Assembly: GCA_963843555.1 (NCBI GenBank)
Contig: CAWJKV010000007.1
Location: forward strand, 96,001-160,000
Direction of reading: 5' to 3'
From: an uncultured Methanosarcinales archaeon
GTDB taxonomy: Archaea; Halobacteriota; Methanosarcinia; Methanotrichales; Methanotrichaceae
DNA: 64,000 nucleotides
Notes under the pieces: model-generated
Told to the model about the DNA's origin: nothing
The model's database searches: none
Seen by the model: only the letters and a program-made list of their open reading frames with translations
Program-made: the position numbers and the translations under genes
Shown: one piece after another, positions 38,565 to 60,058 of the stretch
How positions within the stretch are numbered: the first letter of the stretch is position 1
How the letters are laid out: every line of letters starts with the position of its first letter

Positions 38565-38614
38565 AAATTTATAGATATTTGAGAAGACATCATAAAAGTA
38601 TGAAAAGTTATGAA
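38565..38614 (-). promoter_or_regulatory. Island regulon box plus BRE/TATA (site 1, DUF1269)
   Basis: Minus strand TTCATAACTTTTCATACTTTTATGA-N8-CAAATATCTATAAATTT. Confidence 0.85.
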
Positions 38615-38682
38615 AGGAATAGCCGCCACCGTCAAAGCCTTTCTGATTTATATCAGATATTGCACGGAACTGGTAGCCCGCT

Positions 38683-39849
38683 TTATCTACATTCGACAAC
38701 TATCCCCTCGCAATTCACTTGGCTGGCTGCAAACATCTTTCCAAACCGGCCGTCCATCTTCTTGCTGTAAAGCATAATTGCTTCATTGCTGGCTGCCATG
38801 GCTCTTGCATCACGAATGCACCTGTAAAAGGTGACACGAGAGATTTTGATATCATGATCCGGTGTAAAGAGCTTATCCTGGTTGCAGGCAGCCTTCCAGA
38901 TCGTCTCGTAGGCGGGGAGAACACATAACAGGCTGGCAAGGCGGTAACCTTTAGCCCGGTAGGGCAGAGCCTGGATATATGAGAAGAAGTCCTTCAGCTC
39001 ATTTAATACATCTCTCAATACATCCTGTTTCCAGCTCAGAGGTGCTCCCGCCAGGTTTAATGGCGCATACATGGCGCTTTGCATCCAACTATCTGGCAGG
39101 TAGCATACACCGCGCGATAGATCGTGGACAAAATCCTTTACAATATTGGTCTTTTGCAATCCTCGACCGCATGCTTCACTGAGGTTCAATAAGGTACTTG
39201 CTTCGTCATCATCCAGGCAATAATGATCAATGGCCAGATCAGTGCTCATATGACCTACCGTTCCTGCTACAAAATAGCAGTACTGATTGTAGTCCTGTTC
39301 TCTTGCGAGCAGGCGAACTTCCCCATGAGTTACAAATAACGGTTCGCTATCGGGATCTTCTGCATTCTCCATTCCTCTGGCCATCTCCAGGCTCCAGCAT
39401 CCAATAGCCGATCTGGGGGCATCAGGGATCAGAGAGTAAATCTGCCAGAGCGGCAAACCTTCTGCCAGGCTCATCATACGTCTCTCGTCAGGAGTTAATC
39501 CCGGCCAGTCCTCGTTTTCCCAAATGTGCAAGATCTCCCGGCTTTCAGCAGGATCCTTCAAAAGCTCTTTGAATTCAGAAAAACGCAATCTCTTCCAGTC
39601 CAGAGGCTGGCTGCAATCCTCAATATTATCAACCACCCGGCAGATCAGGTAGGCTGTGGACATGAAATAGTTAAGCGGATATTCGAAACATGGCGTAACA
39701 AGTGCAAAGGAACGAGAGACCTTATTCATGGAATCATTAAGGTACTTTTTCTGCAATTTGGTTAGGCTGAATTCATTGTTCACAATGAGCCACCGATCCT
39801 TTTTTTCAATAGGTCCATTATTTATACCCGGATCTAATTGTCGTCCCAA
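38683..39849 (-). CDS. Squalene/phytoene synthase family (head-to-head prenyltransferase)
   Basis: VSRSFAL, YLICRVVDNIED, YCYFVAGTVG and LQKTNIVKDFVHD motifs. Confidence 0.88.
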   Translation of the reverse strand: MGRQLDPGINNGPIEKKDRWLIVNNEFSLTKLQKKYLNDSMNKVSRSFALVTPCFEYPLNYFMSTAYLICRVVDNIEDCSQPLDWKRLRFSEFKELLKDPAESREILHIWENEDWPGLTPDERRMMSLAEGLPLWQIYSLIPDAPRSAIGCWSLEMARGMENAEDPDSEPLFVTHGEVRLLAREQDYNQYCYFVAGTVGHMSTDLAIDHYCLDDDEASTLLNLSEACGRGLQKTNIVKDFVHDLSRGVCYLPDSWMQSAMYAPLNLAGAPLSWKQDVLRDVLNELKDFFSYIQALPYRAKGYRLASLLCVLPAYETIWKAACNQDKLFTPDHDIKISRVTFYRCIRDARAMAASNEAIMLYSKKMDGRFGKMFAASQVNCEGIVVECR

Positions 39850-39935
39850 TCGATATTTTTATACTGAAAAAATTCAATTGGGAAATGATCGAGCCTAAAG
39901 GATTTCCTCTTCGGCTCCACTTCCAACTGTCCTTT

Positions 39936-40427
39936 TCACTCGATGCTTATCTTGGTGTGGGTTATCACATTTTCCTTGGGAAGAGTGATGGTGAGCAGGC
40001 CATTATTTAAATCGGCTTTTGCCTGTTCCCTCTTAATGCCACATGGCAGTTTGATATCTCTCCGGAAGAGACCGTAGGACCGCTCACATTTCTGGACGGT
40101 TTCATCTTCCATCTCAGGCGCTTCAGTCTTCTTTGCCAGGACAGATAGCTCATCATCGGTTGCCGTGATTTCAATTGCTTCCTTCTCTACTCCGGGCATT
40201 TCCAGAGTAACGATGATCTCTTCATCTGTCTCCACAATATCGGTCAGAGGCTTTCTCACATTTCCCATTGCCATGGGAACGGAATCTGCGATACAGCTCA
40301 TTTTTCCGCAGAGCCCCTTCATCTTGTTTGAATAAATTGATTCAACATCTATCAGGCCGAGATCGTCTGCGAGCATATACATTCCCGTGCTCAAGCTCCT
40401 TATACCTTGATATAACATTCCGAACAT
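39936..40427 (-). CDS. Hsp20/alpha-crystallin family protein (copy 1)
   Basis: PLTDIVET, EMPGVEKE, ERSYG and LNNGLLTITLPK motifs. Confidence 0.9.
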   Translation of the reverse strand: MFGMLYQGIRSLSTGMYMLADDLGLIDVESIYSNKMKGLCGKMSCIADSVPMAMGNVRKPLTDIVETDEEIIVTLEMPGVEKEAIEITATDDELSVLAKKTEAPEMEDETVQKCERSYGLFRRDIKLPCGIKREQAKADLNNGLLTITLPKENVITHTKISIE

Positions 40428-40430
40428 ATT

Positions 40431-40718
40431 TTACCCTACCATTAGACTATTTGCTCCAAAATTCGCTTTGACTTTATCGAGCAATGCATCATGTGCCAGC
40501 AGGAACAGGGAGGATTTGCCAGGCTCGATGAAGTTTCCGGTTTCTTTAATGAATCTGTCATTAGCGCCTACGCCAGCATATTTGCCTGCCAGAGTTCCTG
40601 CTGCCGCTCCAATGACAAGTCCAAATACGGACATAAAGAGGATCAGACCTATTAGCAGTTCCCAGAGAGCCCCGCCTGGAGCTTTGGTATCTAAGGCCTG
40701 TGCAATTAAGTTGCTCAT
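40431..40718 (-). pseudogene. Internally deleted and truncated DUF1269 copy
   Basis: MSNLIAQALDT joined directly to the GGALWELLIGL segment; about 50 codons and the C-terminus are missing relative to the paralogs. Confidence 0.75.
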
Positions 40719-40759
40719 CTTTCTTTTTACTCCTCTTAATTCTCTTATTTGCTTCGATC

Positions 40760-40808
40760 AAATTTATAGATATTTGAGAAGCGCTCATAAAAGTATGAAT
40801 AGTTATGA
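40760..40808 (-). promoter_or_regulatory. Island regulon box plus BRE/TATA (site 2)
   Basis: TCATAACTATTCATACTTTTATGA-N8-CAAATATCTATAAATT. Confidence 0.85.
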
Positions 40809-40843
40809 GTGCCTCGCAATCACCAGGGCTAAATGTTTCCTTT

Positions 40844-41791
40844 CTAAGACATCTTTGCGGATCGTATTACCAATACGGGCCTTTTTGCCTTTCTGGCCAC
40901 ATCGAAGACCACGCTTCCGACTGTTGAAGCATCGAGATATCCTTTGCCGGCAGAGCTCAGGACGATCAAGGATGCATCTATCTCCTCGGCCTTGGCCATT
41001 ATAGTTCCTTCGACGCCTCCGATATCCGGGATGGATCCGCCCTTTGATTGAGTCATGCCACCGGACCCATACGATCTATATCCAGCACCAACGGTAACCA
41101 CCTCGGAGGTTACATTGATCTTTACATGGGACATAAGATCTGTTTTGATGGCGTTGAGCTTCTCCTGTGCGTCCTTGGTTCTTGCTTCTATCTCCGCCGC
41201 GCTCTCACCTTTAGCGATCACGCTCAAGAGATGTACATCTATTGGCAGATCAATATTTTTTAACAAATTTATCGTTGCCATACCTGCCTCAGAGAAATCA
41301 ACCGGGCAGAGTATTTTGGAAAACAAATGAGGGCAGAGCTTCTCCATTGACCCGTCATCGACGATATTGTAGCGCATAATCAGGAGATTGTGGGTTCCCC
41401 GCTGCAATACTTTGGTAGAGACACTTCCCAGAAATATGCCTTTCAAGAGACTTCTTCCACGAGCGCCCATTACCACGAGATCGGCATTCTCCTCGTCTGC
41501 AACCCTCTCGATTACCTCGTACTCCGCACTGCTTGCTGACGGTTCCTCCCTAGCTTTGAAATTCAATCCCAACGCCTCGAGAGCACTCTTTGGTTTTGCC
41601 AGTTCCTCTCGGGCCTTTTTTTGGTCGTCTCCCGGAGACCATACCCTCGCCAATTCATCCTCTTTTAGCACATTCAAAAGGATTACATCTTTTACACCGG
41701 GGATCTCACCGACGCACTCAATAATTTTTTCGCCGTGTTTCGAGAAGTCGGTCGCCACCAAAACTTTTTTAAACATATTGGTTATCTCCAA
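40844..41791 (-). CDS. Universal stress protein (tandem USP domains)
   Basis: KVLVATDFS, VMGARGRS...GSVS, KILCPVDFS and GSVVFDVARKAKRPVLV motifs. Confidence 0.92.
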   Translation of the reverse strand: MEITNMFKKVLVATDFSKHGEKIIECVGEIPGVKDVILLNVLKEDELARVWSPGDDQKKAREELAKPKSALEALGLNFKAREEPSASSAEYEVIERVADEENADLVVMGARGRSLLKGIFLGSVSTKVLQRGTHNLLIMRYNIVDDGSMEKLCPHLFSKILCPVDFSEAGMATINLLKNIDLPIDVHLLSVIAKGESAAEIEARTKDAQEKLNAIKTDLMSHVKINVTSEVVTVGAGYRSYGSGGMTQSKGGSIPDIGGVEGTIMAKAEEIDASLIVLSSAGKGYLDASTVGSVVFDVARKAKRPVLVIRSAKMS

Positions 41792-41835
41792 GACTTATTA
41801 TTTAGCTAATTATCTCAAAGATTACCCTGTATGCA

Positions 41836-41882
41836 TTAATAGATATTTGTGATCACTGCATAATAGTATGAGAAATTATGAA
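41836..41882 (-). promoter_or_regulatory. Island regulon box plus BRE/TATA (site 3, USP)
   Basis: TTCATAATTTCTCATACTATTATGC-N8-CAAATATCTATTAA. Confidence 0.8.
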
Positions 41883-41942
41883 TCTATGGATATTATTCAA
41901 ATATAAAACTTCACCATATACGAATAGTTGATCTGCTATATT

Positions 41943-43691
41943 TCATCCATTCATCCGTCTTGAGATTAAATCAACGCCCGCTATTGAGAAGCCTGTAAAG
42001 AAGAAGAATCCCCACAACCACCAAGGTAGGCCGAAGGCCGCTAATACTGCTCCTGTCAAGAGACAGATTCCGCCGAATGCTGTGCCCAAGATTACTGTGA
42101 GAGGATTGCCTTTATCCGTCCCAACTTGATATTCCAGAATACGCTTTAAATCGTTAATATATAGAGGGCTTTGCTTCAAGGTATCCAGTATCTCCGGGAC
42201 CAAAAGAATACTGGCTTTAAAGGTTTTGATCAAATTAAATTCTTCCAAGAGCAGATTTCGAATATGTTTCTTGGAAACGGCAACAACATTGATTCCTGGG
42301 ACAAGCTGGTTTCCCACTCCTTCTACCGTGACCAGTGCCTTAACCATCAGGATTATTTCACCTGGATACTCAATTCGATAGCGCCCTGCCAGTTTGACCG
42401 ATTCCAGAACGAGCTGCCCTAAGGAGAAGTCTTGGAAATTTGGATGCCTCAACCAGCGCCGGTTCAGATCCTCAACAGCCCTCCGAAAGCCATTCGGATC
42501 GCTTCTTATACCGGCATACGATAGGGCGGTCAGATAACGGGCTGCACTGGCCGAATCGCCTTCTGCTAAAGAATAAAAGTAATAGAACAACCTATTCCTT
42601 AGCTCGCTGTCAAACTGCCCTACCATTCCCAGATCGATAAAGCCAATCTTGCCCCCTTCCATTGCGATCATGTTTGCCGGATGAAGGTCCGCATGAAAAA
42701 AGCCATCCCTGAAGATCATTCTTATGATAGTCTTGATTCCCAGATCAATCAGCTTATACCTTCTTATCAGGTCTAACTTCTTAAGTTCAGCAGAGTCAGC
42801 TTCCTTTCCCTCTATGTATTCCATGCTCAAAGTATCACGATTGCTGAATTCTCTATAAATCGCCGGGAAACGTATTTTTGGCTCATCTTCGAAGTTGGCT
42901 GCAAATATCTCTGCATTATCGGCCTCAATTCGCAAATCCACCTCTCTCAGGCTGTATCTTGCAAATTCTTGGGTAAGCTTAGCCGGCTGGTAACGAGATA
43001 GAAAGATTTGTGAAATTCGTCCAAAAAAAGTCAGAAGCATGGTATCGGTCTGCACCATCTTTCTGACTCCGGGCTTGAGTACCTTGATCACAATCTCTTC
43101 TCCAGAACTCAATCTAGCTAGATGAGTCTGGGCCAGGGAACCTGAGCCCAACGGTTCCGGATCAATCCATGCAAACATCTCTTCAACAGGCCGTTTGAGA
43201 TCCGCCTCGATTAATTCTTTAAAGCGCTCAAAAGGCACTACCGGAGCTTGTCTAAGAAGATTTTTAAGCTCCTCTGTAACTGATTTTGGCAAAATATCCT
43301 CACGCAGGCTGAGAATTTGCCCTAGCTTTATATAAGACGGGCCCATCAGTTCGAGTCTCCGCCTGAATTGGACGGGGAAAGGTTGACTGATTATTTCTTT
43401 GATCATAAAAGGCCAGGCAAACACCAGTATTATGCGCAAAATGATTACCCTAAAGCTCCAGGCCCTTCCCTGATTTTTCATCTCTCTAACATAGGCAAAT
43501 CCCCCACCCAGCAGCATTCCAAGGAAATGTCTCAGAGTTCCAATGAAACGACGAATCAACCCCTGAGGAGGTTTTTCTTTGTATATTTCAAAGATGGGCT
43601 TTGGTTTTATCGGCTCAGATAAGTCTACAATCGTCACTTTCGTGGGTTCATCCCTGCATGATTTGAAACTCATAATTTTTCTTTGCCTCAC
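41943..43691 (-). CDS. ABC1/AarF/UbiB family atypical kinase
   Basis: GPSYIKLGQILS, GSGSLAQTH, FFHADLHPAN and IDLGMVG motifs; C-terminal TMs. Confidence 0.92.
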   Translation of the reverse strand: MRQRKIMSFKSCRDEPTKVTIVDLSEPIKPKPIFEIYKEKPPQGLIRRFIGTLRHFLGMLLGGGFAYVREMKNQGRAWSFRVIILRIILVFAWPFMIKEIISQPFPVQFRRRLELMGPSYIKLGQILSLREDILPKSVTEELKNLLRQAPVVPFERFKELIEADLKRPVEEMFAWIDPEPLGSGSLAQTHLARLSSGEEIVIKVLKPGVRKMVQTDTMLLTFFGRISQIFLSRYQPAKLTQEFARYSLREVDLRIEADNAEIFAANFEDEPKIRFPAIYREFSNRDTLSMEYIEGKEADSAELKKLDLIRRYKLIDLGIKTIIRMIFRDGFFHADLHPANMIAMEGGKIGFIDLGMVGQFDSELRNRLFYYFYSLAEGDSASAARYLTALSYAGIRSDPNGFRRAVEDLNRRWLRHPNFQDFSLGQLVLESVKLAGRYRIEYPGEIILMVKALVTVEGVGNQLVPGINVVAVSKKHIRNLLLEEFNLIKTFKASILLVPEILDTLKQSPLYINDLKRILEYQVGTDKGNPLTVILGTAFGGICLLTGAVLAAFGLPWWLWGFFFFTGFSIAGVDLISRRMNG

Positions 43692-43745
43692 CTGAGCACA
43701 TAATTTTAAGATCTTATTGGTAATAAAATTTCTCTTAGATCCCGA

Positions 43746-44252
43746 TCATTCCACACGAATCCTCGTTCGAGCGGTCACAACCTCCTTAGGGATGGTGATG
43801 GTGAGCAGACCATTATTCAGAGTCGCGCCGGTCTCATCTCTCTTTATGCTACACTGCAGTTTGATCTTCCGCCGGTAGATTCCGTGTGACCTCTCACACT
43901 TAAGGGCTCTAACATCATGCATCTTTGGCTCTACCGTCTTCTTTGCGCGGACAGATAGCTCATCATCAGTTGCTGTAACCTCAATATCATCTTTTTGCAT
44001 TCCAGGTAGTTCCAGAGTTACAATGATCGCCTCGTCCGTTTTCACAAAATCAGTCAGAGGCTTCCTCACGTTTCCCGCCAGCAAAGGAATGGCTTCTGTT
44101 ATTCGGCCCATCTTCTCGTAGATGTATCTCATCTCATCAGAATAAGGGGTCTCGATATCGATCAGGCCCAAGTCATCCGCCACTAAATACATTTTTGTGG
44201 CGAGGTCATTTAACCCTTTACAAATCACTTTAGGTATCATCTGGCAAACCAC
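43746..44252 (-). CDS. Hsp20/alpha-crystallin family protein (copy 2)
   Basis: PLTDF, ELPGMQKDDI, ERSHG and LNNGLLTITIPK motifs; clear paralog of 39936..40427. Confidence 0.9.
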   Translation of the reverse strand: MVCQMIPKVICKGLNDLATKMYLVADDLGLIDIETPYSDEMRYIYEKMGRITEAIPLLAGNVRKPLTDFVKTDEAIIVTLELPGMQKDDIEVTATDDELSVRAKKTVEPKMHDVRALKCERSHGIYRRKIKLQCSIKRDETGATLNNGLLTITIPKEVVTARTRIRVE

Positions 44253-44269: not shown

Positions 44270-44770
44270 CTAAGCATTGACAGCCTGGACCGCGAAGGCC
44301 GTCCTGAAATGATCTTCCTGCTCCTTGGAAAGAGACGTCTTCAATACCTTAATATTCTTATATTTCTTCAACTCATCCATGACCTTATCGGGCGTAGCAT
44401 CACGAACCAGCAGGAAAAGGGCAGAATTGCCGGGCTGAATGGAGTTGCCGACCTCTTTGATGAATTTGTCATCGACACCCACATCTGCATATTTGCCTGC
44501 CAGCGCTCCTGCTGCCGCTCCAATGACCATTCCGAATACGGGAACAAAGAATATCAAGCCTATCAATAGTCCCCAAAATGCACCACCAAGCGCTCCAGAT
44601 CCGGCCAGGCTGGTGACTTGTTTAACTTTAACCTTGCCATCTTTGTTTCTAACTGCTACTGCGGCATCATCCAGGCCGATTAGATGCTCCTTTTGCAGAC
44701 GCATCAAATCGTCTCTCATCTGCTCGGCACCGTTTTCAGTGTCGAAAGCCAATACAACTAAGTTACTCAT
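44270..44770 (-). CDS. DUF1269 family protein (copy 2)
   Basis: Highly similar to 38046..38528. Confidence 0.9.
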   Translation of the reverse strand: MSNLVVLAFDTENGAEQMRDDLMRLQKEHLIGLDDAAVAVRNKDGKVKVKQVTSLAGSGALGGAFWGLLIGLIFFVPVFGMVIGAAAGALAGKYADVGVDDKFIKEVGNSIQPGNSALFLLVRDATPDKVMDELKKYKNIKVLKTSLSKEQEDHFRTAFAVQAVNA

Positions 44771-44886: not shown

Positions 44887-44935
44887 AATTTATAGCTATT
44901 TGAGCTGTCATCATAAAAGTATGAACTATTATGAA
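44887..44935 (-). promoter_or_regulatory. Island regulon box plus BRE/TATA (site 4)
   Basis: TTCATAATAGTTCATACTTTTATGA-N8-CAAATAGCTATAAATT. Confidence 0.85.
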
Positions 44936-45102: not shown

Positions 45103-45151
45103 TTCATATCAAATTCATACTCTTGGAAATGCTTCTCAAATACCTATTAAT
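45103..45151 (+). promoter_or_regulatory. Degenerate regulon box plus BRE/TATA (divergent from site 4)
   Basis: TTCATATCAAATTCATACTCTTGGAA...CTCAAATACCTATTAAT; third half-site lost and first spacer 1 nt longer. Confidence 0.55.
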
Positions 45152-45298: not shown

Positions 45299-45982
45299 AT
45301 GTATAAAAATATAGCTCTAACCTTAATGGTGCTGTGGGTCCTAGCAGCACCAACACAGAGTTCCATAGGTGAAAACTTGACAACCATGATGGAACCGACG
45401 ATAATAGGGCAGATTAATCAAACGGACCGAATCGTCACTCCTGCGGAAGCTAATCTATGGCTCCAACAGAGAACCCTCTGGCAAGAGCGCGCTTTCTGGA
45501 CCAGGATGGCCATTATGGCTATACTCCAGGATTCGGCTGATAAGGGGCCCGTCGTGAAACGATTGATGAGAAACTATGAGGATACAGCTCAAAACCTTGT
45601 GCCTTATTATGGAAATGAGACCTCAGAAAAGTACGGCAATCTGATCCGAGACAATCTTCTGATCACAGCCGATTTCGCCAATGCAGTCAGGCAAAAAGAT
45701 AAGACAGCGCTGGCGAATGCAAGCGTCGAATGGAATAAGAACGTAGAGGATATAGCCGATTTCGAAAACACACTTGGCGCCAACCTGACTCCGGTCGATA
45801 GAAAAGCCATTTGGCTGCAGCAATTGAACCTCACCAAGAATGAGACAATGCAGCTGTCCGATAAAGATTACAGCACATCCATTGATACCTTCGACCGAAT
45901 CGAGGAATTGAGCAGTATGATGGCGGACTCGCTTGCTAACGGGATCATCCGAAGGTTCTCCGAGGAGTTCCATCAGAATTGA
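45299..45982 (+). CDS. Secreted helical-bundle hypothetical protein
   Basis: Signal peptide; LWQERAFWTR...RLMRN...PYYG motifs. Confidence 0.75.
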   Translation: MYKNIALTLMVLWVLAAPTQSSIGENLTTMMEPTIIGQINQTDRIVTPAEANLWLQQRTLWQERAFWTRMAIMAILQDSADKGPVVKRLMRNYEDTAQNLVPYYGNETSEKYGNLIRDNLLITADFANAVRQKDKTALANASVEWNKNVEDIADFENTLGANLTPVDRKAIWLQQLNLTKNETMQLSDKDYSTSIDTFDRIEELSSMMADSLANGIIRRFSEEFHQN

Positions 45983-46019
45983 TTGTGAATGATTCGTTTA
46001 GATGCTTCGAGGAAGAAAT

Positions 46020-47180
46020 ATGAAAAAAATCTTGGCTATGGCAGTGCTTCTGATACTCCTTTGCATGAATGCATGGGCTCAGCCGACACCGCCAGCAACA
46101 CCGCCCAGTCCAGAATCTCTGGGATTGCCGGTACCGGAAGCAACCAACAGTACCTCTGCTCCCCCAGTTTCTGAGACTACCCAGGCTGCAGTTTCCACAA
46201 CAGCAACCACTGCAGAAGCAGCTGCGCCCTCAACTCAGGCTACAACTACGGCCAGCACCAACATGGTAGTGCCCGTGGGAGTTCCAGTTCCTAATAAATT
46301 CTACATCCCCTACTCGCCATCAACCACGGCAAGCTGTTACTATGGTCAGTGGGTGCCTATGTGGCTTGATAATAAAGGATATGGCCCTCTGTATACATAC
46401 GAGTGGTATCCTGATGGGAGACTTGTAACACAATATCTCGCCAACATACCTTATCCGGGCTGGCTGAAGATGTGGTTCTATGGAGATGCCCCAGGCTGGC
46501 ACACCCTGCAGTACTACTGCAACGGCTGGAGCAATTACATCTATGTCTACGTAAATGGTGGCACGACGGCCCCAACTCAGCCGCCTGCTCAAGGCTGCAA
46601 TGCTAGAATTGTTGTCAGTTCACCGTATGCGAGAGGATATTCTGTTTACGTGGATGGCTACTATAAAGGAGGAGACGGCCAGAATGGAGACCCGATGGAC
46701 GGATATTATGAATTCTACGTTCCAGGAGGTCAGCTGCACACGATAAAGGTCTTCTATCAGGGTGGAACCTACCAGCAGACAAAGACCTACTACTGTGGAA
46801 GCACCTACATGATAACAATATCATCGGCACCGCCAACTGGAAGCACGCCGCCAGCGGAAACTACGCCGCCTGTAGAGCCAGTAGAGCCTACACCGCCTGT
46901 AGAGCCAGTGCCACCAGTAGAGCCTGTATATCCGACGCACCCTATAGAGTTACCTGCATATCCGACGCACCCTATAGTGATTGAACCTATACCTGTATAT
47001 CCGACACAGCCTATAGCGACTCCACCTGCTCTTCCGACACAGCCTATAGCGACTCCACCTGCTCTTCCAACACAGCCTATAGCGACTCCACCTGCTCTTC
47101 CAACACAGCCTATAGCGACTCCACCTGCAGTTCCAACACAGCCTATAGCGACTCCAACCCCTACAGTGACACCTTACTAG
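46020..47180 (+). CDS. Secreted Pro/Thr-rich protein with PEGA-like domain and C-terminal repeats
   Basis: Signal peptide; SVYVDGYYKG; PTQPIATPPAL repeats. Confidence 0.8.
   Translation: MKKILAMAVLLILLCMNAWAQPTPPATPPSPESLGLPVPEATNSTSAPPVSETTQAAVSTTATTAEAAAPSTQATTTASTNMVVPVGVPVPNKFYIPYSPSTTASCYYGQWVPMWLDNKGYGPLYTYEWYPDGRLVTQYLANIPYPGWLKMWFYGDAPGWHTLQYYCNGWSNYIYVYVNGGTTAPTQPPAQGCNARIVVSSPYARGYSVYVDGYYKGGDGQNGDPMDGYYEFYVPGGQLHTIKVFYQGGTYQQTKTYYCGSTYMITISSAPPTGSTPPAETTPPVEPVEPTPPVEPVPPVEPVYPTHPIELPAYPTHPIVIEPIPVYPTQPIATPPALPTQPIATPPALPTQPIATPPALPTQPIATPPAVPTQPIATPTPTVTPY
47001..47160 (+). repeat. Coding tandem repeat, 33 bp x about 5 (PTQPIATPPAL)
   Basis: Units start at 47001, 47034, 47067, 47100 and 47133. 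Confidence 0.95.
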
Positions 47181-47846: not shown

Positions 47847-47894
47847 ATAAATAGATATTTGAGATTCCATCATAAAAATATGAAAAGTTATGAA
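47847..47894 (-). promoter_or_regulatory. Island regulon box plus BRE/TATA (site 5)
   Basis: TTCATAACTTTTCATATTTTTATGA-N8-CAAATATCTATTTAT. Confidence 0.85.
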
Positions 47895-48539: not shown

Positions 48540-48562
48540 GATGTATACCTCTAAAAATTGCT

Positions 48563-49419: not shown

Positions 49420-49468
49420 AATTTATAGCTATTTGAGAAGCTGCCATAAAAGTATGAAACGTTATGAA
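49420..49468 (-). promoter_or_regulatory. Island regulon box plus BRE/TATA (site 6)
   Basis: TTCATAACGTTTCATACTTTTATGG-N8-CAAATAGCTATAAAT. Confidence 0.85.
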
Positions 49469-49541
49469 GGTTGAACTACCGCGCATGAAGGGCACTGCTT
49501 CCCACTTTATCCCGGTAAGAATGATTGGCCAAAGAAGCTCA

Positions 49542-49589
49542 TCATAACTTTTCATACTTTTCTGACTAACTCTTAAATATCTATAAATT
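49542..49589 (+). promoter_or_regulatory. Island regulon box plus BRE/TATA (site 7, Tes-like gene; divergent from site 6)
   Basis: TCATAACTTTTCATACTTTTCTGA-N8-TAAATATCTATAAATT. Confidence 0.85.
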
Positions 49590-51892: not shown

Positions 51893-51940
51893 ATTTATAG
51901 ATATTTGTGAAACCCTGACAGAAGTATGAAAAGATATGAA
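51893..51940 (-). promoter_or_regulatory. Island regulon box plus BRE/TATA (site 8)
   Basis: TTCATATCTTTTCATACTTCTGTCA-N8-CAAATATCTATAAAT. Confidence 0.8.
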
Positions 51941-51980: not shown

Positions 51981-54900
51981 CTACCATTCCTTTATCCGCA
52001 TATTGCTTGTTTTAACGCGGGTTTTCCATATATTATAAATAATCTGCAGACGTTCGTTATCGCTTATCATAGCTTCATCAGCCAGTTTGTGTTCGGTAAG
52101 ATCCTGCTGGAGGCACAGGTATCCTTCCGGTTCTCTGGCTTCTCCCAGGGAAGCAATTATATTTTCAATGTAGATATGCCCTGCTCGACTCGGAGGCATC
52201 TTTTTATCTATGTCGGTATCCTTTGCCTTAGCGGTTTTCATCTTGATCCATCTGCCTTCACTGACAATTTGGCCGTCTTCCAGCTTATGTTTGCTTTCAA
52301 TATCTGCTATTACTTCACGGAATATGTTATACCTCTTATGCTTGCCAGTACCAATCAAGCTCATAATTTTCTCGCTTACCTGGTTGGAATTAACTATAAA
52401 ACCTTCTGAATCATACAGCTGAATGCCGATGGGAGATAGCTCAAAGATCTTCCTGAATCGCTCCTCGCGTTCGCTCAAGTCTTTTTCCATTTTCTTTCTA
52501 TCTGTTATATCCAGGCTTGAACCAATTAAGCATAAAGGTTTGCCCGCTGCATCTTTAACAATGTTTGCAGATAGATGGATATCGAATGTAGAACCGTCTT
52601 TTTTCTTACCGACAATGTCGCCTGACCAGGCTCCTTTTTTGAGTGAGGCATCTATTACTTCATCAATTTCACCAGGATCACCAAAGAACACCCGAGCGGG
52701 CTTACCCAGGACCTCATCCTTTTTGTATCCCCACAGATCTAAGGCAGCCGCATTGACATAGGTAAGAATTCCTTTGGTATCAGCAATAACCGTCGCTGTA
52801 ATTGCAGCCTCGATGGCAGCATCTTTAATCCTCAGGCTTTCCTCCATTTTCCGTTGCTCTGTTATATCTATAACTACACATAGTGCACCCCAATCAGAAA
52901 TAGGAGTGGGAACTGCTTTAGTGTTGGCCCAAACAATTTCCCCATTTTCTTTTTCAATCCCAATTTCGATGTACGGGGTAGGCTTTTTCTCATGCATCGC
53001 CTTTCCTGCAGGGAAATTTTTATATAAATTATCCTCTGTATCCTTTGGATTTGGCAAAATGCTTCCATCAGCCGAGAAGCATTTCCACTCCCAATGTTTT
53101 TTTCGATTTAATTCATCCAGGGACAAATCCGTGAAATCGATGAAGGATTGATTAGCCTCGATAATTCTGCACTCTTTATCTACCACATATATTCCAATAG
53201 GTATAAGATCAAAAATAGCCTTAAGTTTATTCTCGCTTTCCATCAATTTTTTCTGTGCCTTTTTGCTTTCGCTGATATCAACGAATGAGCTGATTATACA
53301 GACGGATCTATCTGATCTATCCTTGACAGTGCTTATGGAGAGGTGAACATCCATGTATGAGCCGTCTTTTTTCCTGAAAACCAGCTCACCCTCCCATCTG
53401 CCAGTTGCAGATATTTGCTTTGCTATTTTATCGGCATCTTTGGGGTATTGCAGGAAATCATGGAGAGAATGCCCCACAATTTCTTCTCTTTCATATCCCA
53501 TCTTCCTCAGCCAGGATTCATTGGCATAGAATAGATCTCCCGACGAATTGGCCAGAGATATGGCATTCAGGGACGATTCAATTGCCTCGTCCTTAATTCT
53601 CAGAGACTTCTCCTTCTCCGCTCGTTCAGTGATATCGCGGGTGACTACTCCTATGCTAAAACCATTCTCCGTCTTTATGGGGAAGAGCACCTCGTGAATG
53701 GTTCTGCGCGTTCCATCAGCTAGCTGGATCTCCTGGTCCTCAAACCATCCCTTCAGGGCTATTCGTCCCTTATCAGTAAGCCGGATCAAAAAGGATTTTA
53801 TCTTCTCGTAATCTTCCTCGGTTTTTTGATCATCCGGAATTAATTGAAACTCGACATCCCATGCAAATTTGCCTAGCACTTCTTCTCGCTTTAAGCCGGT
53901 GATATATTCCTGGGAGTCATTCCATTCTACAATTTTGCCGCTGTAGTCTATAAGGCTTATGCCGTCCTCCGAGTTCTCTACAATGCTGCGGAACTTTTGT
54001 TCGCTCTCTCGCAGCGCCTCATCGATCTGCTTGAGCTTCGTGATCTCCATATGATGCCATAATCGACCGTAGGATTTTCCATCGATGAATATAGGAATAA
54101 AATCTCGCAGGCATGTCTTCCCACCTTGCAGAGAGACTTCCTGACCTTTTACCGGTTGCCCTTGGTTCACGATCTCCTCGATGCGGGCGACTTCCTCATC
54201 TGGATTTAAAAAAGAGTCCTTTATCTTTCCGATAATCTCCTGAGAACCGAGCCCAACTAATTCTTGAGGCGCGTCCTTCAGATCAAATAGGCTGCAGAAT
54301 GCTTGATTGGCATACTCGATTCGATCCTCATCAGTCACAAGCAAGATGCCGGCATACAGGCTGGAAAGAATAGCGTATGAGCGCTGCAAAGTAGTGCGCA
54401 GTTGGTCTTCTGACTTCTTTCCACCGGTGATATCCTCAAAGGTGCTGTAGACCCGGTAAGGTTTTATTTCTCCCGGTAGAAATTGAGGTATAGCATTGAT
54501 ATTTATCCATCTATATTCCATGGCATTAGAGTTGAAGATCCCCATCACAATGTTCTCGACAGTCTTCCCTGTAGCTAAGGCGATCATGGCGGGATGGGTC
54601 TCTCCAGGAAAATCTGAGCCATCTTCATGTATTGCCTTCCACCCTGGATCATTGGATGTCCTGCCTTCAATCTGGCCCGAGGTCAAGCCAAGAATCCTTT
54701 GCGCGGCAGGATTTGCTGAGATTATGTTCCCATTATCATCTTGATATACTACGCCCTGCACCATAGTCTCAAAGAGCAGGCGGTATTGTTCTTCAGATTG
54801 CCTTAGCTGCTCTTCTGCTTTTTTGCGATCGGCAATTACCTGGAAATATACGGATATGCCATTCTCTCTGGGGTACACCCGTACATCATACCAATTTTCA

Positions 54901-55565
54901 TAAGGCTTTACCCCAAAGTAAGTCTCGAAAGAGATAGAGCGTTTTTCTTTATTCGCCCAGTTATATGTATCATCAAAAATGGATCCCTTAATTTCAGGAA
55001 ATGCATCGAATATATTGTATCCAACAACCTCTGGGCCAGTCCGTCCCAGCAGCAACTCCGCAGCTTTATTGAAGTAGGTGATCTTCAGGTTCTCATCCAG
55101 AACAAAAAATCCATCGCTAATGCTTTGGAGAATTTCTTTATATTCCTTCTTTGCTGCATTTGCCTCGCTCTCAGCATTCTTGAGGCTGGTTATATCCAGG
55201 AGAGCAACTTGCATAGCGGTTTTTCCCTGATATTCGATAAAATTTGCCCGCACATCTAACCAGGCAGTGTCCCCATTTTTCCTGATAATTCGAAACTCCT
55301 GACGCAGGGGCAGTTTGTTGCTAGAAATGCCGTCTATCATGGCTCCAAGGATGCTATTTTGGTCATCGGGATAGATCATCGACATGAAATCATTAGCAGA
55401 AAGAGCAAGCATATCCTCCAGAGTATGCCCGGTTATATCGGCCAAGCTCCTATTAGCATAGACCAATTTTTTGTTCTGAATTATTCCCATTCCTAGGAGG
55501 GCGTTATCAATTAATTCACGACAAATTTCCTTATTAAGCTCAATATCCGGGATCTCAGAAGACAT
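51981..55565 (-). CDS. Multi-PAS sensor protein (about 9 PAS/PAC domains, no kinase or other output domain)
   Basis: Repeated PAS patterns (N.A...L.G....E..G ... DIT/DIS/EIT) over 1194 aa; no HisKA H-box or HATPase motifs. Confidence 0.9.
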   Translation of the reverse strand: MSSEIPDIELNKEICRELIDNALLGMGIIQNKKLVYANRSLADITGHTLEDMLALSANDFMSMIYPDDQNSILGAMIDGISSNKLPLRQEFRIIRKNGDTAWLDVRANFIEYQGKTAMQVALLDITSLKNAESEANAAKKEYKEILQSISDGFFVLDENLKITYFNKAAELLLGRTGPEVVGYNIFDAFPEIKGSIFDDTYNWANKEKRSISFETYFGVKPYENWYDVRVYPRENGISVYFQVIADRKKAEEQLRQSEEQYRLLFETMVQGVVYQDDNGNIISANPAAQRILGLTSGQIEGRTSNDPGWKAIHEDGSDFPGETHPAMIALATGKTVENIVMGIFNSNAMEYRWININAIPQFLPGEIKPYRVYSTFEDITGGKKSEDQLRTTLQRSYAILSSLYAGILLVTDEDRIEYANQAFCSLFDLKDAPQELVGLGSQEIIGKIKDSFLNPDEEVARIEEIVNQGQPVKGQEVSLQGGKTCLRDFIPIFIDGKSYGRLWHHMEITKLKQIDEALRESEQKFRSIVENSEDGISLIDYSGKIVEWNDSQEYITGLKREEVLGKFAWDVEFQLIPDDQKTEEDYEKIKSFLIRLTDKGRIALKGWFEDQEIQLADGTRRTIHEVLFPIKTENGFSIGVVTRDITERAEKEKSLRIKDEAIESSLNAISLANSSGDLFYANESWLRKMGYEREEIVGHSLHDFLQYPKDADKIAKQISATGRWEGELVFRKKDGSYMDVHLSISTVKDRSDRSVCIISSFVDISESKKAQKKLMESENKLKAIFDLIPIGIYVVDKECRIIEANQSFIDFTDLSLDELNRKKHWEWKCFSADGSILPNPKDTEDNLYKNFPAGKAMHEKKPTPYIEIGIEKENGEIVWANTKAVPTPISDWGALCVVIDITEQRKMEESLRIKDAAIEAAITATVIADTKGILTYVNAAALDLWGYKKDEVLGKPARVFFGDPGEIDEVIDASLKKGAWSGDIVGKKKDGSTFDIHLSANIVKDAAGKPLCLIGSSLDITDRKKMEKDLSEREERFRKIFELSPIGIQLYDSEGFIVNSNQVSEKIMSLIGTGKHKRYNIFREVIADIESKHKLEDGQIVSEGRWIKMKTAKAKDTDIDKKMPPSRAGHIYIENIIASLGEAREPEGYLCLQQDLTEHKLADEAMISDNERLQIIYNIWKTRVKTSNMRIKEW

Positions 55566-55701
55566 AAATGCCGGCCACCTTATCTCGCATATGACTTAGG
55601 ACCAACCTATATTCATAACTTTCTCTCATAAAGGATTTTGCATCAAATTCCCGTTCGATAATTGAATACTTGACTGAATAAATGAGTCGCAGATCAGCTA
55701 A

Positions 55702-55750
55702 TCATAACTTTTCATACTTTTATGACATTGCCTCAAATATGTATATAAGT
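55702..55750 (+). promoter_or_regulatory. Island regulon box plus BRE/TATA (site 9)
   Basis: TCATAACTTTTCATACTTTTATGA-N8-CAAATATGTATATAA. Confidence 0.85.
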
Positions 55751-55786
55751 AATTATTCGAATTATAGGGATAGGGGATCTATGATC

Positions 55787-56329
55787 ATGGAAGAAATTCA
55801 AATTTTATTAGTAGGATTTACCGGAGATGACTTTATAAGGAGAGTCCTTCCTGAACTTCGGGCCCTGAGCGAGAAGGGCTTTATCAATATAATCGATCTT
55901 CTCTTTGCAAAGAAAGATATTAAAGGCAATATTTTAGCCTTGAAAAAACGCGAACTAACTGCCGATGAGGCAGTGCGCTTTGGATCCATTGCCGGAACTT
56001 TAATAGGTTTAGATATATTCGATGACGAAGGTGGAACGGATACTTCCGGGATGGAACATATAGCCGTAAAAGAGAGTGATTTTGGATCCGATCTTAAGGA
56101 TATCGCAATTGTTATCGAGAAAATTCCTAAAGACAGTTCATTTGGGATAATTTTAATCGAGTACTGCCGGACTATCGAATTGAAGAAGACCTTAAACGAT
56201 GCAGGCGGAGTGTTGCTGGCCCAGGGGCTGGTATCACCTCTTGCTCTGGCAAATATTGATGCGGAAATAGCTGAATATTTGCGGGCTTCAGCCAAACGTA
56301 AAGAAACGTTAATCGCGCAAGCAAGTTGA
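55787..56329 (+). CDS. DUF6325/DUF1269-related protein
   Basis: QILLVGF.G, I.IIDLLFAKKD..G and ILIE...L...L..AGG motifs. Confidence 0.7.
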   Translation: MEEIQILLVGFTGDDFIRRVLPELRALSEKGFINIIDLLFAKKDIKGNILALKKRELTADEAVRFGSIAGTLIGLDIFDDEGGTDTSGMEHIAVKESDFGSDLKDIAIVIEKIPKDSSFGIILIEYCRTIELKKTLNDAGGVLLAQGLVSPLALANIDAEIAEYLRASAKRKETLIAQAS

Positions 56330-56454: not shown

Positions 56455-58803
56455 ATGGCGAAAAGATGGAATGGAAAGCTGGCAATAGACATTCGTGATG
56501 CTAAACCTGATTGGACCCCGTTCTTGCAGCCCCAGGCGCCGGAAGGAGCGCCCAATATCCTTATGATCGTCTGGGATGATGTAGGTTTCGGGGCTCTCGA
56601 TGTCTATGGAGGGCCTATCGAAGTGCCCAATATGCGCCGCATCTCAGATATGGGCATTCGCTACAACAACTTCCACACAACGGCTCTGTGTTCACCCACC
56701 CGATCCTGTCTGGTCACAGGCAGAAACGCTACCAGCAATAACATGGCTTGCATTACCGAAGCCACAAGTGGATTTCCGGGCTTCAGCGGCCGGATACCTT
56801 TCGAGAATGGCTTCATCTCCGAGGTGCTGAATGAGCGGGGCTGGAATACTTACGCTTTGGGCAAGTGGCATCTGACCCCTGAGGAGGAGACTGATCTATC
56901 GGCCTGGAAAGGGCGCTGGCCGCTTGGAAGAGGCTTTGAACGGTTTTATGGTTTCCTGGGCGCCGAGACTCATCAATGGTACCCGGACCTCGTCTACGAT
57001 AACCACCCTATCGACCAGCCCTATCCTCCTGAGGAGGGCTACCACCTCTCCAAAGACATTACGGACAAGGCTATAGAATTCATCATGGATGCCAAGACAA
57101 TAGCTCCGGAGAAACCCTGGTTCATGTATTTCTGCCCGGGCTGCGCTCATGCTCCGCACCATGTATTCAAAGAATGGGCTGATAAGTACAAAGGCAAGTT
57201 TGACATCGGCTATGAGAAGATCAGGGAGCAGATCCTGGCCAATCAGAAGAAGATCGGTCTCCTGCCGGAGGGCACCAGGCTTTCGCCCATCAATCCTCAT
57301 GGCGAGCCTGATGTGACAGGCCCGGAGGGCCAGCCCTGGCCTAAATTGGACTTCGTGCGCCCCTGGGAATCACTGAGTGAAGAAGAGAAGAGACTCTTCG
57401 TACGTATGGCTGAGGTCTATGCGGGATTTGTATCCTACACAGACAGTGAGATTGGACGGCTGCTTGATCATCTGGTAGAGTCTGGCCAGCTCGAAAACAC
57501 CATAATAGTAGTAGTATCCGACAATGGTGCCAGTGCCGAGGGTGGACCCAATGGTTCATTCAATGAAAACAAAATGTTTAATGGTATACCCGATTCAATT
57601 GAGGACAACCTTGAATTTATCGATGAACTGGGTAGCCCAAAGACTTACAACCACTACTGCAGCGGCTGGGCCTGGGCCTTCGATACTCCGCTACCATACT
57701 GGAAGCGTTATGCGGGTTATGAGGGTGGTTCATCCGATGTCTGTATCATCGCCTGGCCCAAAGGCATAAAGGCCCGGGGAGAGATTCGCAATCAATACAT
57801 CCATGCCATAGACATTGTTCCCACCATCTACGATATGATGGGAATCGAGCCCCCTGAAGAGATCAAGGGATACAAGCAGAGCCCAATAGAAGGAGAGAGC
57901 TTCAAAGCCAGCTTTGATAACCCAAAGGCCCCGGAGCGCGAAATCCAGTTCTATTCCATGCTCGGCCAGCGTGCCATATACCACCAGGGCTGGCTGGCGA
58001 ATACGCTACACCCCACCATATCAGGCTGGAGCAAATTTGAGAAGGACGTCTGGGAGCTCTACAATCTCAAAGAAGATCGTTCTCAAATGCGTAACCTTGC
58101 AGGTCAGAATCCGGGAATGCTCGAAAAGCTCAAAGGGCTCTGGTTCTACTACGCCGGCGTCTACAAGGGACTGCCAATCGACGATCGCAGCCCGCTTGAG
58201 ATCGTCAATACACCACGACCCCAGCCCTCCAAGCCTCGCAACCGCTACATCTACTATCCCCACACGGCTGATGTCCCTGAATCGGTTGCGGTCAATATTC
58301 GCGGCCGATCGTATACAATTGCAGCAGGAGCTCTAATAGATAAGCTCGAAGCCGAAGGGGTGCTCTTCGCCCAGGGCAGCGGCCTGGGAGGTCACAGCCT
58401 GTACATAAAGGATAGGAAGCTGCACTATGTCTACAACTGGCTCGGTGTAGACATCCAGAAGATCACGTCAGATGTGGAGATTCCAACTGGAAAGCACATC
58501 TTCTCAGCCGAGTTCCAGAAGACCGGTCAGGACCCACAAACCAGGAGTTTCCTGGGAACTCTGAACCTCTATATCGATAACAAAAAGGTCGGCGAGGCTG
58601 GGATCAAGACACAGCCCGGCAAGTTCTCAATAGCTGGCGAGGGACTTTGTGTGGGCAGGGACAGCGCTTCACCAGTCTCTCCGGACTATAAGCCGCCCTT
58701 TGCTTTCATCGGTGGAATGATCGAGAAGGTGGCAGTGGATGTAAGCGGTGAGCCATTCGTGGACCATGAAAAGGAGGTTTCGGCCTGGATCATGAAGGAC
58801 TGA
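56455..58803 (+). CDS. Arylsulfatase (Cys-type) with C-terminal LamG-like domain
   Basis: DDVGF, TALCSPTR (CxPxR), GKWHL, HAPH and SDNG motifs. Confidence 0.95.
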   Translation: MAKRWNGKLAIDIRDAKPDWTPFLQPQAPEGAPNILMIVWDDVGFGALDVYGGPIEVPNMRRISDMGIRYNNFHTTALCSPTRSCLVTGRNATSNNMACITEATSGFPGFSGRIPFENGFISEVLNERGWNTYALGKWHLTPEEETDLSAWKGRWPLGRGFERFYGFLGAETHQWYPDLVYDNHPIDQPYPPEEGYHLSKDITDKAIEFIMDAKTIAPEKPWFMYFCPGCAHAPHHVFKEWADKYKGKFDIGYEKIREQILANQKKIGLLPEGTRLSPINPHGEPDVTGPEGQPWPKLDFVRPWESLSEEEKRLFVRMAEVYAGFVSYTDSEIGRLLDHLVESGQLENTIIVVVSDNGASAEGGPNGSFNENKMFNGIPDSIEDNLEFIDELGSPKTYNHYCSGWAWAFDTPLPYWKRYAGYEGGSSDVCIIAWPKGIKARGEIRNQYIHAIDIVPTIYDMMGIEPPEEIKGYKQSPIEGESFKASFDNPKAPEREIQFYSMLGQRAIYHQGWLANTLHPTISGWSKFEKDVWELYNLKEDRSQMRNLAGQNPGMLEKLKGLWFYYAGVYKGLPIDDRSPLEIVNTPRPQPSKPRNRYIYYPHTADVPESVAVNIRGRSYTIAAGALIDKLEAEGVLFAQGSGLGGHSLYIKDRKLHYVYNWLGVDIQKITSDVEIPTGKHIFSAEFQKTGQDPQTRSFLGTLNLYIDNKKVGEAGIKTQPGKFSIAGEGLCVGRDSASPVSPDYKPPFAFIGGMIEKVAVDVSGEPFVDHEKEVSAWIMKD

Positions 58804-58891
58804 ATCGGAGAGGTTGACTCAGGGGCCAAAGGGCCATCCAGTCAATTCTTTCTCCGAGTGGATGCAGATGATTTAGAAGGGGGGAACGCAT

Positions 58892-59338
58892 ATGTCTACA
58901 GAGGTTGTAGCGACAAGTAACGCGACTGCAGGGGCTGCAGCAGCGAGCCATGAAATCGGCGTTTGGATTGAACTATCGGTACGTCTGATAGAGGCAATTT
59001 CGGTCATCGTAATCGTTCTTGCCATTCTTTATGCGACCTATATCTTCATTCGCAGGGCGACAGGCCGCAAGGGCACAAAGGACCCCATCGAGGAGTACAA
59101 AGAAAGAATTGGGAAATCCCTTCTGTTGACTCTGGAAATTCTGGTTGCCGCAGATGTGATCGAGACTGTTGCATTTTCGAAAACGATGGAGAGCGTAGTG
59201 CTATTAGGTGTGCTTGTTATAGTCAGGATTCTCCTGAGCTGGTCTATAGTTGTGGAGATGGAAGGAACCTGGCCCTGGAGGAAAAAAGAATTCGATTTAA
59301 AAGCTGAACAGAAGGCGGCTGCCTCAAAGAAGGAATAA
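58892..59338 (+). CDS. DUF1622 membrane protein
   Basis: GKSLLLTLEILVAADVIETV and EMEG.WPW motifs. Confidence 0.88.
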   Translation: MSTEVVATSNATAGAAAASHEIGVWIELSVRLIEAISVIVIVLAILYATYIFIRRATGRKGTKDPIEEYKERIGKSLLLTLEILVAADVIETVAFSKTMESVVLLGVLVIVRILLSWSIVVEMEGTWPWRKKEFDLKAEQKAAASKKE

Positions 59339-59345
59339 AATCATC

Positions 59346-59917
59346 TCAGCTATTGCCAGTGGATGCGATTAGCTGAGTCTCATTTTTTATGATAACCTCT
59401 GCGTTTTTCAGGGCGTTATAAGTCCTTATATCCAGCTTATATGGCTGAAGCTCGTATAAAAAAACCTCTGTAGGATCCCATATGGCCATCCAGATGAGAA
59501 TGGTGAGAAAACCAACAAAGACTGCAAGAAGGGTGTCACCTAAGGCATCCAATCGATAAACTGTTAGAGCCACCAACAGACAAAACGCGGAAAAAATCAG
59601 TCCAATCGTCAATGCCCGCCAGCCAGCAGCCCGTCCTATCTCAAGCTGGCGGTGGTTCTCCGATATTTTAAAATCACAATACCTGGATAAAGCATCTGCT
59701 GTCCTGTCTGGAGATCGGGCTCGATCTGCTCGCTGGGAAGGAAGATGGTTAGCCTTATCCTGTCCACCTTCCTCTTTTTTGTTCTTAGATAATTGGCCGC
59801 TTCTTCCGCCCCGGATATTTGCAGCCTCTGATAGGCAAAGGGATTCAATTCCGGGTCTACAAACAGGTGCTTAATTTCCTCTAGATGCAAATCAATATCT
59901 AAATAGGAAGTTTCCAT
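59346..59917 (-). CDS. Membrane hypothetical protein (1-nt deletion near 59705)
   Basis: ORFs 59636..59917 and 59346..59612 join through TADALSRYCDFKISEN; W.AIWDP.E.FLY motif. Confidence 0.7.
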
Positions 59918-60011
59918 GGCTGTGCACCTTTTGATCTTCTCCCGTTAAATGTGCATTTAATATAAACTTGATGCACAATCTGGATCAAGGTCTTGCAGGA
60001 GAGCTGGAGTC

Positions 60012-60058
60012 TTCATAACAATTCATATATTTATGAAGACGCCACAAATATCTATATC
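60012..60058 (+). promoter_or_regulatory. Island regulon box plus BRE/TATA (site 10, BASS-MFS)
   Basis: TTCATAACAATTCATATATTTATGA-N8-CAAATATCTATAT. Confidence 0.85.

Follow-up and report, generated by a model that had tools for sequence, protein, structure and literature searches.

Introduction

Some archaeal activators act from sites placed just upstream of a weak core promoter. At the archaellum promoters of Methanococcus and the Thermococcales, the sites of the activator EarA lie at a fixed distance upstream of a weak B-recognition element (BRE) (PMC5512572, PMC10665913). Here we describe a repeated element of similar layout in a 64,000-nucleotide stretch of DNA (the window) from an uncultured archaeon of the Methanotrichaceae (assembly GCA_963843555.1, contig CAWJKV010000007.1, positions 96,001 to 160,000). 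Each copy has a box of short half-sites, a spacer of 8 variable nucleotides (N8) and a BRE/TATA. We read the copies as activator-type promoters derived from the promoter of glnA, copied across an island of stress-type genes and read by a protein of the host chromosome, RHH-V4R, named for its N-terminal ribbon-helix-helix (RHH) domain. We put the probability of this reading at about 0.55.

Like the island promoters, those of EarA have repeated short sites, up to three of them adjacent, about 9 nucleotides upstream of a weak BRE. The EarA site is TACATA and its target the arl operon, whereas the island has TCATA or TATGA half-sites, many stress and nitrogen targets, and an RHH protein as the candidate binder. 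None of the island sites is a TACATA-type site before archaellum genes. Ptr2, TFB-RF1 and the ara-box also have a site immediately upstream of a sub-optimal BRE/TATA, to which TFB or TBP is recruited (PMC5512572). They differ from the island in site sequence and factor family, and their available descriptions report no sister regulons of the N5 and N4 kind described below.

The parent form of the box, like NrpR and NrpA, targets glnA, amtB-glnK and nifH (PMC9765008, PMC11456600, PMC6801745). NrpR is a repressor. NrpA, compared by description only, is nif-specific in M. mazei; RHH-V4R is encoded in 0 of 47 genomes of family f2, inferred to be the Methanosarcinaceae. The motif GGAA-N6-TTCC, which we take to be the NrpR-type operator, has 13 matches outside long open reading frames (ORFs) in the genome holding the window and 0 at its island, glnA and glutamate-synthase promoters.

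RHH regulators of the CopG/Arc/MetJ type include the archaeal CdrS and aCcr1 and bind cooperatively to short tandem sites. RHH-V4R shares their N-terminal domain but adds a C-terminal domain that may be V4R/H-NOX/Bet3-like, a linkage to nitrogen genes and a predicted activator position. Archaeal REC-(PAS)n and PAS-HisKA proteins without an output domain are thought to work by protein contacts (PMC5847659). The island encodes a protein that also stacks PAS domains and has neither a DNA-binding nor an enzymatic output; it differs in having no REC domain, in ending with a HisKA_2-like helix without the histidines, and in having a specific candidate partner proposed for it. Neither the box nor RHH-V4R is described in the literature we found, including PMC3991700, though subscription papers such as the NrpA study may bear on novelty. 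The element is of the regulon type and would work like the known activator-dependent archaeal promoters, though by sequence it is neither an EarA nor an NrpR site; the nitrogen regulator behind it is apparently undescribed.

Architecture of the island promoters

The preliminary description reported ten boxes and a degenerate copy at 45103. Their positions and strands are as it gave them, except that some starts fall 1 nucleotide off a 25-nucleotide frame. The box has two TCATA half-sites 10 nucleotides apart, then 4 nucleotides (N4) and TATGA, and is followed by N8, YAAATA and a TATA-like octamer. The third half-site, said to lie 10 nucleotides upstream, is so placed in the ten boxes; in the degenerate copy the first period is 11 nucleotides, while the orthologous promoter at locus L072 has regular spacing. 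The gap of 8 nucleotides between box and YAAATA is exact at all ten sites. Each box is directed at an ORF start, 36 to 165 nucleotides beyond the first TATA base. The copies in the window and the genes behind them are as follows.

38568..38614, minus strand: element (box, N8 and BRE/TATA) with the box at 38590-38614, the BRE-like YAAATA at 38576-38581 and the TATA at 38568-38575; predicted to drive the DUF1269 gene of the next line
38046..38528, minus strand: DUF1269 gene (Pfam PF06897)
40763..40809, minus strand: element before a short DUF1269 gene (40431-40718), an Hsp20 gene (39936-40427) and a squalene/phytoene-synthase-like gene (38683-39849)
41836..41882, minus strand: element before a tandem-Usp gene (40844-41776)
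44889..44935, minus strand: element before genes for DUF1269 (44270-44770), Hsp20 (43746-44252) and an ABC1/UbiB kinase (41943-43691)
45103..45150, plus strand: degenerate box with N8 and BRE/TATA, before ORFs 45299-45982 and 46002-47180, both with signal-peptide-like N-termini
47848..47894, minus strand: element before a DUF2173 gene (47475-47819)
49422..49468, minus strand: element before a CMD-family gene (49005-49355), a SHOCT gene (48563-48844) and ORF 47982-48566
49541..49587, plus strand: element before the gene for the tetraether lipid synthase Tes (49624-51168; NCBIfam NF045702, above cut-off)
51894..51940, minus strand: element just after the PAS gene and before a 107-amino-acid ORF of no family (51413-51736)
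51981..55565, minus strand: multi-PAS gene of 1194 amino acids, candidate sensor or co-factor of the island regulon
55701..55747, plus strand: element divergent from the PAS gene, before a 182-amino-acid ORF (55781-56329), a sulfatase gene (56455-58803) and a DUF1622 gene (58892-59338)
60012..60058, plus strand: element before genes for an SBF-family transporter (60139-61005) and an MFS transporter (61071-62564)

Gene spacing suggests that the DUF1269 gene at 38046..38528 probably leads an operon reaching the K+ channel gene at 35915-36700.

The ten boxes stand far above chance: a box-only matrix scores 29.9-40.3 bits on them and 20.0-39.6 bits when each is left out in turn, against a peak of 15.4 bits in 40 local shuffles of the window. 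One shuffled genome gave a top score of 13.2 bits and 0 matches above 20 bits. As had been stated, the first 38 kb of the window hold no copy. In the genome holding the window (G000; 2.68 Mb, 82% complete and Methanothrix-type by the names of its protein matches) 18 sites score above 28 bits and the next-best match 20.8 bits; 15 of the 18 lie on contig C7 between 134.6 and 180.7 kb and 3 elsewhere. We slid the BRE/TATA across offsets 2-20 from the box. At held-out sites the offset is 8 in 21 of 23: in 7 of 8 G000 sites outside the window (the remaining one is at 9), 6 of 6 sites in genomes G005 and G076, and 8 of 9 metagenome sites that the search pattern had not chosen. Shuffled sequence gave no signal.

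Across 73 distinct island sites the half-sites and BRE/TATA are conserved and the N8 spacer drifts. The octamer (T/G)CTATAAAT of the preliminary description is too narrow, since real octamers are more variable, but they are indeed non-canonical. TTTATAWA, the consensus used to compare core promoter strength (PMC5512572), occurs at only 3 of the 73 island sites and at 0 of 38 glnA promoters. By itself the BRE/TATA variant is rare, found in 7 of 1895 upstream regions of G000 by a crude count. The claimed sense orientation also holds: 60 of the 63 labelled sites, out of 81 (18 unlabelled), are sense to a gene, and the other three took their label from a spurious antisense ORF over a sense DUF2173 gene. 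With this layout the island elements are very probably promoters, and they probably act by activation rather than repression.

Relationship to the nitrogen promoters

Rather than standing alone as a new motif, the box is the one-base-shorter sister of a promoter that precedes glnA and glutamate synthase order-wide. The longer pattern (TCATA-N5-TATGA, N8 and the same BRE/TATA) is present in 79 of the 105 genomes of the order, at one to three places per genome, with 0 matches for a reversed-pattern control. The places examined in the order lie before glnA, where the third half-site is present, and before glutamate synthase. From the first half-site through the TATA, the consensus of the 73 island sites is that of 38 glnA promoters, minus one A. 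Island sites share with the nitrogen box the TCATA/TATGA half-sites, N8 and YAAATA-NN-TATA by consensus comparison. Three-half-site arrays at nitrogen-gene loci have a period of 10+10 in 44 of 44 cases, in four orientation patterns, with the G000 amtB promoter one more; the island period is 10+9, so the island sites lack the 10+10 period.

In a phylum sample the N5 pattern occurs in 28 of 301 genomes. Matches outside the order lie mostly before glnA, amtB, nifH, cynS or glutamate synthase, or directly after glnA; several are chance-like. The glutamate-synthase operon of G000 has an N4 palindrome in front of it, followed by the same N8 and BRE/TATA, while the same promoter in other genomes carries N5 in 10 of 14. 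The glnA-glt gap of G076 is 43 nucleotides, so it offers no separate glutamate-synthase promoter to compare for N4. From these sequences we are highly confident that the island box descends from the nitrogen box. At locus L332 (G014 C25:109037), in a genome without N4 boxes, an N5 box is divergent from a homologue of the island DUF6325-family gene, a possible intermediate state.

Candidate regulator

The one unknown transcription factor invoked in the preliminary description is probably not a gene of the window. Among the window ORFs scanned (small ORFs in part) no DNA-binding gene is recognizable, as it had said, and the probable regulator belongs to the core chromosome outside the window: the candidate RHH-V4R (G000 C16:27592-28140). 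This gene, of 182 amino acids, adjoins N5 boxes in three lineages. Its N-terminal domain matches Pfam RHH_1 at 34.3 bits (cut-off 20.5) and CopG structures at E 8e-4. The model of its C-terminal domain, with a predicted local confidence (pLDDT) of 72, resembles H-NOX (Z 7.6, root-mean-square deviation 3.7, 95 aligned), YslB (Z 6.9), Bet3 (Z 6.8) and PoxR (Z 6.1), all at Z below 8, too low to decide the fold, and with designed proteins ranking higher.

RHH-V4R is encoded in 96 of the 105 genomes of the order, mostly in single copy and about 90-98% identical within a genus. It is present in 27 of the 28 N5-positive genomes versus 121 of 301 phylum genomes overall. At 14 of the 29 top loci, glnA, amtB, glnK or a glutamate-synthase-like gene is no more than 1.5 kb away from it, and further cases fall outside that set. 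RHH dimers would fit half-sites that recur every 10 bp in either orientation. We consider it likely that this candidate binds the N5 box, and lean toward the same protein also reading the N4 box. A profile of 59 sequences found no paralogue in G000, G005 or the island loci, and the host protein is the simplest N4 reader because none was found. Apart from RHH-V4R, G000 has a single full RHH_1 match; it is NikR-like by eye and was set aside.

In 25 of 41 loci a conserved, presumed NrpR-type operator stands about 99 nucleotides ahead of the RHH-V4R gene, at a position that would fit a divergent transcript at least as well. This region (G000 C16:28140-28513, that is L289:6140-6513, and L294-L323) also contains an opposite-strand TATA and another conserved stretch. 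No Rfam match was found in it; its sequence suggests that it may encode a small RNA or small protein transcribed divergently under nitrogen control. In family f6 the RHH-V4R family reaches 8 copies per genome.

Genes and distribution of the island

Behind the boxes of the window are genes for three DUF1269 proteins, two Hsp20, a tandem Usp, an ABC1/UbiB kinase, a squalene-synthase-like protein, DUF2173 and CMD proteins, Tes, a sulfatase and transporters. Beyond it, boxes precede genes for 6-phosphogluconate dehydrogenase, accompanied by lactonase and glucose dehydrogenase, as well as for hydrolases of the MGH1-like and debranching kinds, a crystallin, a protein of the DUF6325 family, a second Tes and three further sulfatases. 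The targets had been called mostly unrelated, which overlooks the three DUF1269 paralogues in the window and, genome-wide, two Tes and three directly preceded sulfatases. The boxed genes form a patchily distributed stress-type island, not a random set, and from the family names we infer a general-stress or dormancy set. Median G+C content at third codon positions is lower in the island, 0.53 versus 0.62 elsewhere (48 versus 1847 ORFs, crude ORF calls).

Only two of the 105 genomes of the order have the multi-site N4 box, G000 and G005, which belong to different genera. G005 (97% complete, read in part) has six N4 sites, and G076 (68% complete) has one, before Tes. In a phylum sample of 401 genomes the N4 form occurs in one, G000 itself, and in 0 of the 400 others; none of G014, G092, G003, G017 and G012 (0 of 5) has an N4 box. 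A metagenome scan returned 50 matches across 48 loci, of which 39 match the G000 island, six match other genes and three are chance-like. The metagenome island loci have the same gene set in shuffled order, with protein identities of about 40-96%.

DUF1269 genes are present in 27 of the 105 genomes. Among 30 loci returned (one partial), the box precedes only the G000 and G005 copies, and many others have a conventional TATA. Because the copies elsewhere lack it, the box appears to have been recruited to DUF1269 genes in some lineages only. The 227-amino-acid gene at 45299 is found in 14 of the 105 genomes, and none of its copies examined in other genomes has a box in front.

Other matches were rejected as copies of the element. 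Weak N4-like matches occur at 25 places in other Methanotrichales, outside G000, G005 and G076; 20 were checked and none has BRE/TATA at N8. Viral contigs gave 13 box-only matches, and 0 of the 10 that were scored have BRE/TATA. The strict pattern, to which the G005 sites have mismatches, gave a single match in a scan of genome contigs; it lies in a Eubacterium record and is attributed to chance. Rfam gave 0 matches in four stretches and no tRNA was found in six.

Several single copies have features of their own. Both G000 Tes paralogues (window 49624-51168 and L004:2942-4519) stand behind a box; the C2 copy has a 9-nucleotide gap and its G076 orthologue an 8-nucleotide gap. A HEAT-repeat gene (G000 C5:192418-195601, L007), separated in G000 from its island neighbors, has lost the box but kept the spacer and BRE/TATA; in L101 and L108 the box is intact. 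The promoter of the island crystallin gene has a decayed copy at G000 C5:236089 (L008). A related palindrome before a HAD hydrolase gene is conserved in two genomes (G000 C2:262935, L010, and L138) and lacks BRE/TATA at N8. A conserved small basic ORF of about 35-37 amino acids with a clear ribosome-binding site follows the box in L066, L091, L096, L097, L105, L107 and L109; no counterpart is labelled among the G000 ORFs of at least 90 amino acids. The promoter at G000 C7:173100 shares upstream flank, box and spacer with L100, L080 and L090 and diverges from them after the BRE/TATA, which is consistent with crossovers inside the repeat; L081, L092 and L104 are further cases.

The multi-PAS protein

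A family scan of the 1194-amino-acid ORF at 51981-55565 gave eight PAS matches and no kinase, DNA-binding or other domain. Its C-terminal 139 amino acids are found in exactly two of the 105 genomes, G000 (two copies) and G005, the same two as the multi-site box. Cargo genes are spread more widely, as the counts for the 227-amino-acid and DUF1269 genes show. The multi-PAS gene is present in 9 of the 48 metagenome loci, where a box usually flanks it on one side or on both. The conserved tail can be aligned with a HisKA_2-type H-box of L436 (E 9e-5); the H-box histidines and a HATPase domain were not found in it, and the protein ends there. A model of the C-terminal domain is a PAS fold with a long helix (pLDDT 69.5), and an atlas search with this domain returned PAS clusters only.

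A complex of an RHH-V4R dimer with the PAS C-terminal domain was predicted with a score of 0.52, versus 0.00 for the best of three controls; at least 81% of contacts are shared and the partner has a pLDDT of 71-75. Among solved pairs 116 of 157 reached the mark for this score, and among mismatched pairs 2 of 215, counts that hold only roughly for the present prediction. Scores of at most 0.60 include only 18 of the 157 solved pairs and both passing mismatches, and the predicted binding gives weak support. That the PAS protein is a direct co-factor of the regulator is a tentative proposal. The second copy, in L293:3596-6460 (G000 C17:11596-14460), is shorter, about 80% identical at both ends, and adjoins a transposase-like fragment.

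Proposed mechanism and alternatives

In the mechanism we favor, each island element is an activator-type promoter made of three 5-bp half-sites (TCATA or the reverse TATGA), the 8-nucleotide spacer and a weak BRE/TATA. The founder would be a glnA-type promoter of the Methanotrichales that lost one base between its last two half-sites, giving 10+9 in place of 10+10. It would have been copied ahead of about 18 transcription units and amplified with genes, its repeats doubling as crossover points. Dimers of RHH-V4R would occupy consecutive turns of the helix, in either orientation; bound one turn ahead of the BRE, they would assist TFB/TBP in binding the weak core. Most likely the island borrows this host protein, and its own multi-PAS protein, which lacks a kinase, may gate or re-space it. 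The strict N4/N5 split suggests this bolder step, in which the PAS protein licenses or re-spaces the activator of the host. A fuller version, in which the activator RHH-V4R serves the Methanotrichales and several related lineages as a third nitrogen regulator beside NrpR and NrpA and a mobile island hijacks it through a shortened glnA promoter, with the docked kinase-dead PAS protein licensing the N4 reading, is speculative.

Few archaeal activators have been characterized, and a candidate regulator, its precise site and natural spacing variants can now be named. The candidate bears on how Methanothrix-type acetoclastic methanogens and lineages related to them assimilate nitrogen (glnA, glutamate synthase, amtB, nifH, cynS). 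The island, with about 18 copies before genes that have ordinary promoters elsewhere, would be a snapshot of the birth of a regulon by promoter duplication, its promoter repeat also serving gene shuffling as a crossover point. If the PAS co-factor step is true, it gives a concrete output for the output-less archaeal PAS proteins, and if PAS licensing is true, an orthogonal regulon can arise around a host factor, with no need for a new DNA-binding protein.

A number of observations weigh against the host protein reading copied glnA-type promoters. The strict N5 pattern is missing from 94 of the 121 RHH-V4R-positive genomes, and the link to RHH-V4R rests on synteny and co-occurrence among kin genomes, which are not independent counts. 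RHH proteins are mostly known as repressors. Other candidate factors exist: G000 and G005 have 12 and 19 HTH_45 matches and five AsnC matches each, and NrpR domains are also among the factors present; another island regulator could be missing from G000 at its 82% completeness. The island cargo is not made up of nitrogen-assimilation genes. Island loci contain 0 N5 sites, and outside them N4 occurs only at the G000 glutamate-synthase promoter and in one chance match. This near-absolute split fits two binders as well as one, and a one-base shift turns the distal sites by about 34 degrees. As to the PAS protein, its co-occurrence with the box is based on two genomes and may reflect co-transfer, the PAS domain is absent from G076 despite its one box (at 68% completeness), and the second PAS copy in G000 has no box.

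The N4 box could share the same promoter ancestry and be read by a separate island-specific factor, the one-base shift insulating it from the nitrogen regulator. We consider this unlikely but keep it as plausible because the N4/N5 split is strict. It would also suit a cargo that looks like general stress and not nitrogen, and the incomplete G000 assembly leaves room for such a gene. The G005 island contig has an HTH_45 gene (C22:9410), but that match is absent from the G000 island. The 97%-complete G005 and the island loci hold no RHH-V4R paralogue, and the scanned island ORFs no DNA-binding family. The half-sites of N4 and N5 are identical, which is why we argue for the same DNA-binding domain, and the G000 glutamate-synthase promoter is itself N4.

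Alternatively, another core factor, such as an Lrp/AsnC or HTH_45 protein, reads both boxes and RHH-V4R is a nitrogen-linked neighbor with another role. Lrp proteins bind AT-rich semi-palindromes and, in Sulfolobus, the glnA and gltB promoters (PMC6801745), and G000 has its five AsnC matches. However, AsnC is present in the f2 genome tested, and f2, which lacks RHH-V4R, also lacks the box (1 of 47, chance-like). With RHH-V4R repeatedly adjoining the boxes and the half-site geometry fitting RHH dimers, we regard another core factor as improbable.

The favored reading also has to be set against the repeat being a recombination or cassette-joining site (attC/dif-like), or a promoter passively amplified without shared control. 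Gene order varies among loci, G000 C7:173100 and L100 share flank, box and spacer yet differ after the BRE/TATA, the G000 HEAT-repeat gene has lost its box and kept the rest, and island GC3 is lower. This is very improbable all the same: the architecture occurs in single copy at glnA and glutamate synthase order-wide, its half-sites and BRE/TATA are conserved while N8 drifts, the labelled sites are all sense to a gene once the spurious antisense ORF is set aside, and neither a recombinase family among the scanned island ORFs (small ORFs in part) nor a tRNA in the six stretches was found. A repressor operator or an alternative-TFB promoter class would suit the usual role of RHH proteins and the rarity of the BRE/TATA variant, but is very improbable with a box that ends 8 nucleotides upstream of the BRE and overlaps neither TATA nor start, a TATA that is non-canonical in 70 of 73 sites, and one TFB gene found in the 82%-complete G000.

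Other features of the window

The 227-amino-acid ORF at 45299 was considered as a regulator for its weak Forkhead match and rejected for its signal-peptide-like N-terminus and its presence in 14 of the 105 genomes. HTH_45 winged-helix genes are expanded, with 8-21 matches per genome in G000, G004, G005, G057 and G076. The MGH1-like glycoside hydrolase genes at window 62691-63977 and at L001:691-3469 and 5286-8128 are ORF pairs in G000, and G005 has one ORF of 907 amino acids. Genes for a GTPase, OapB and OapC, an origin-associated cluster, lie at 25053-26470, about 12 kb from the island edge. On the minus strand, two ORFs at 12377-14788 carry Dictyostelium CTDC cysteine repeats, and a DDE transposase gene at 19036-20349 lies within a low-GC stretch.

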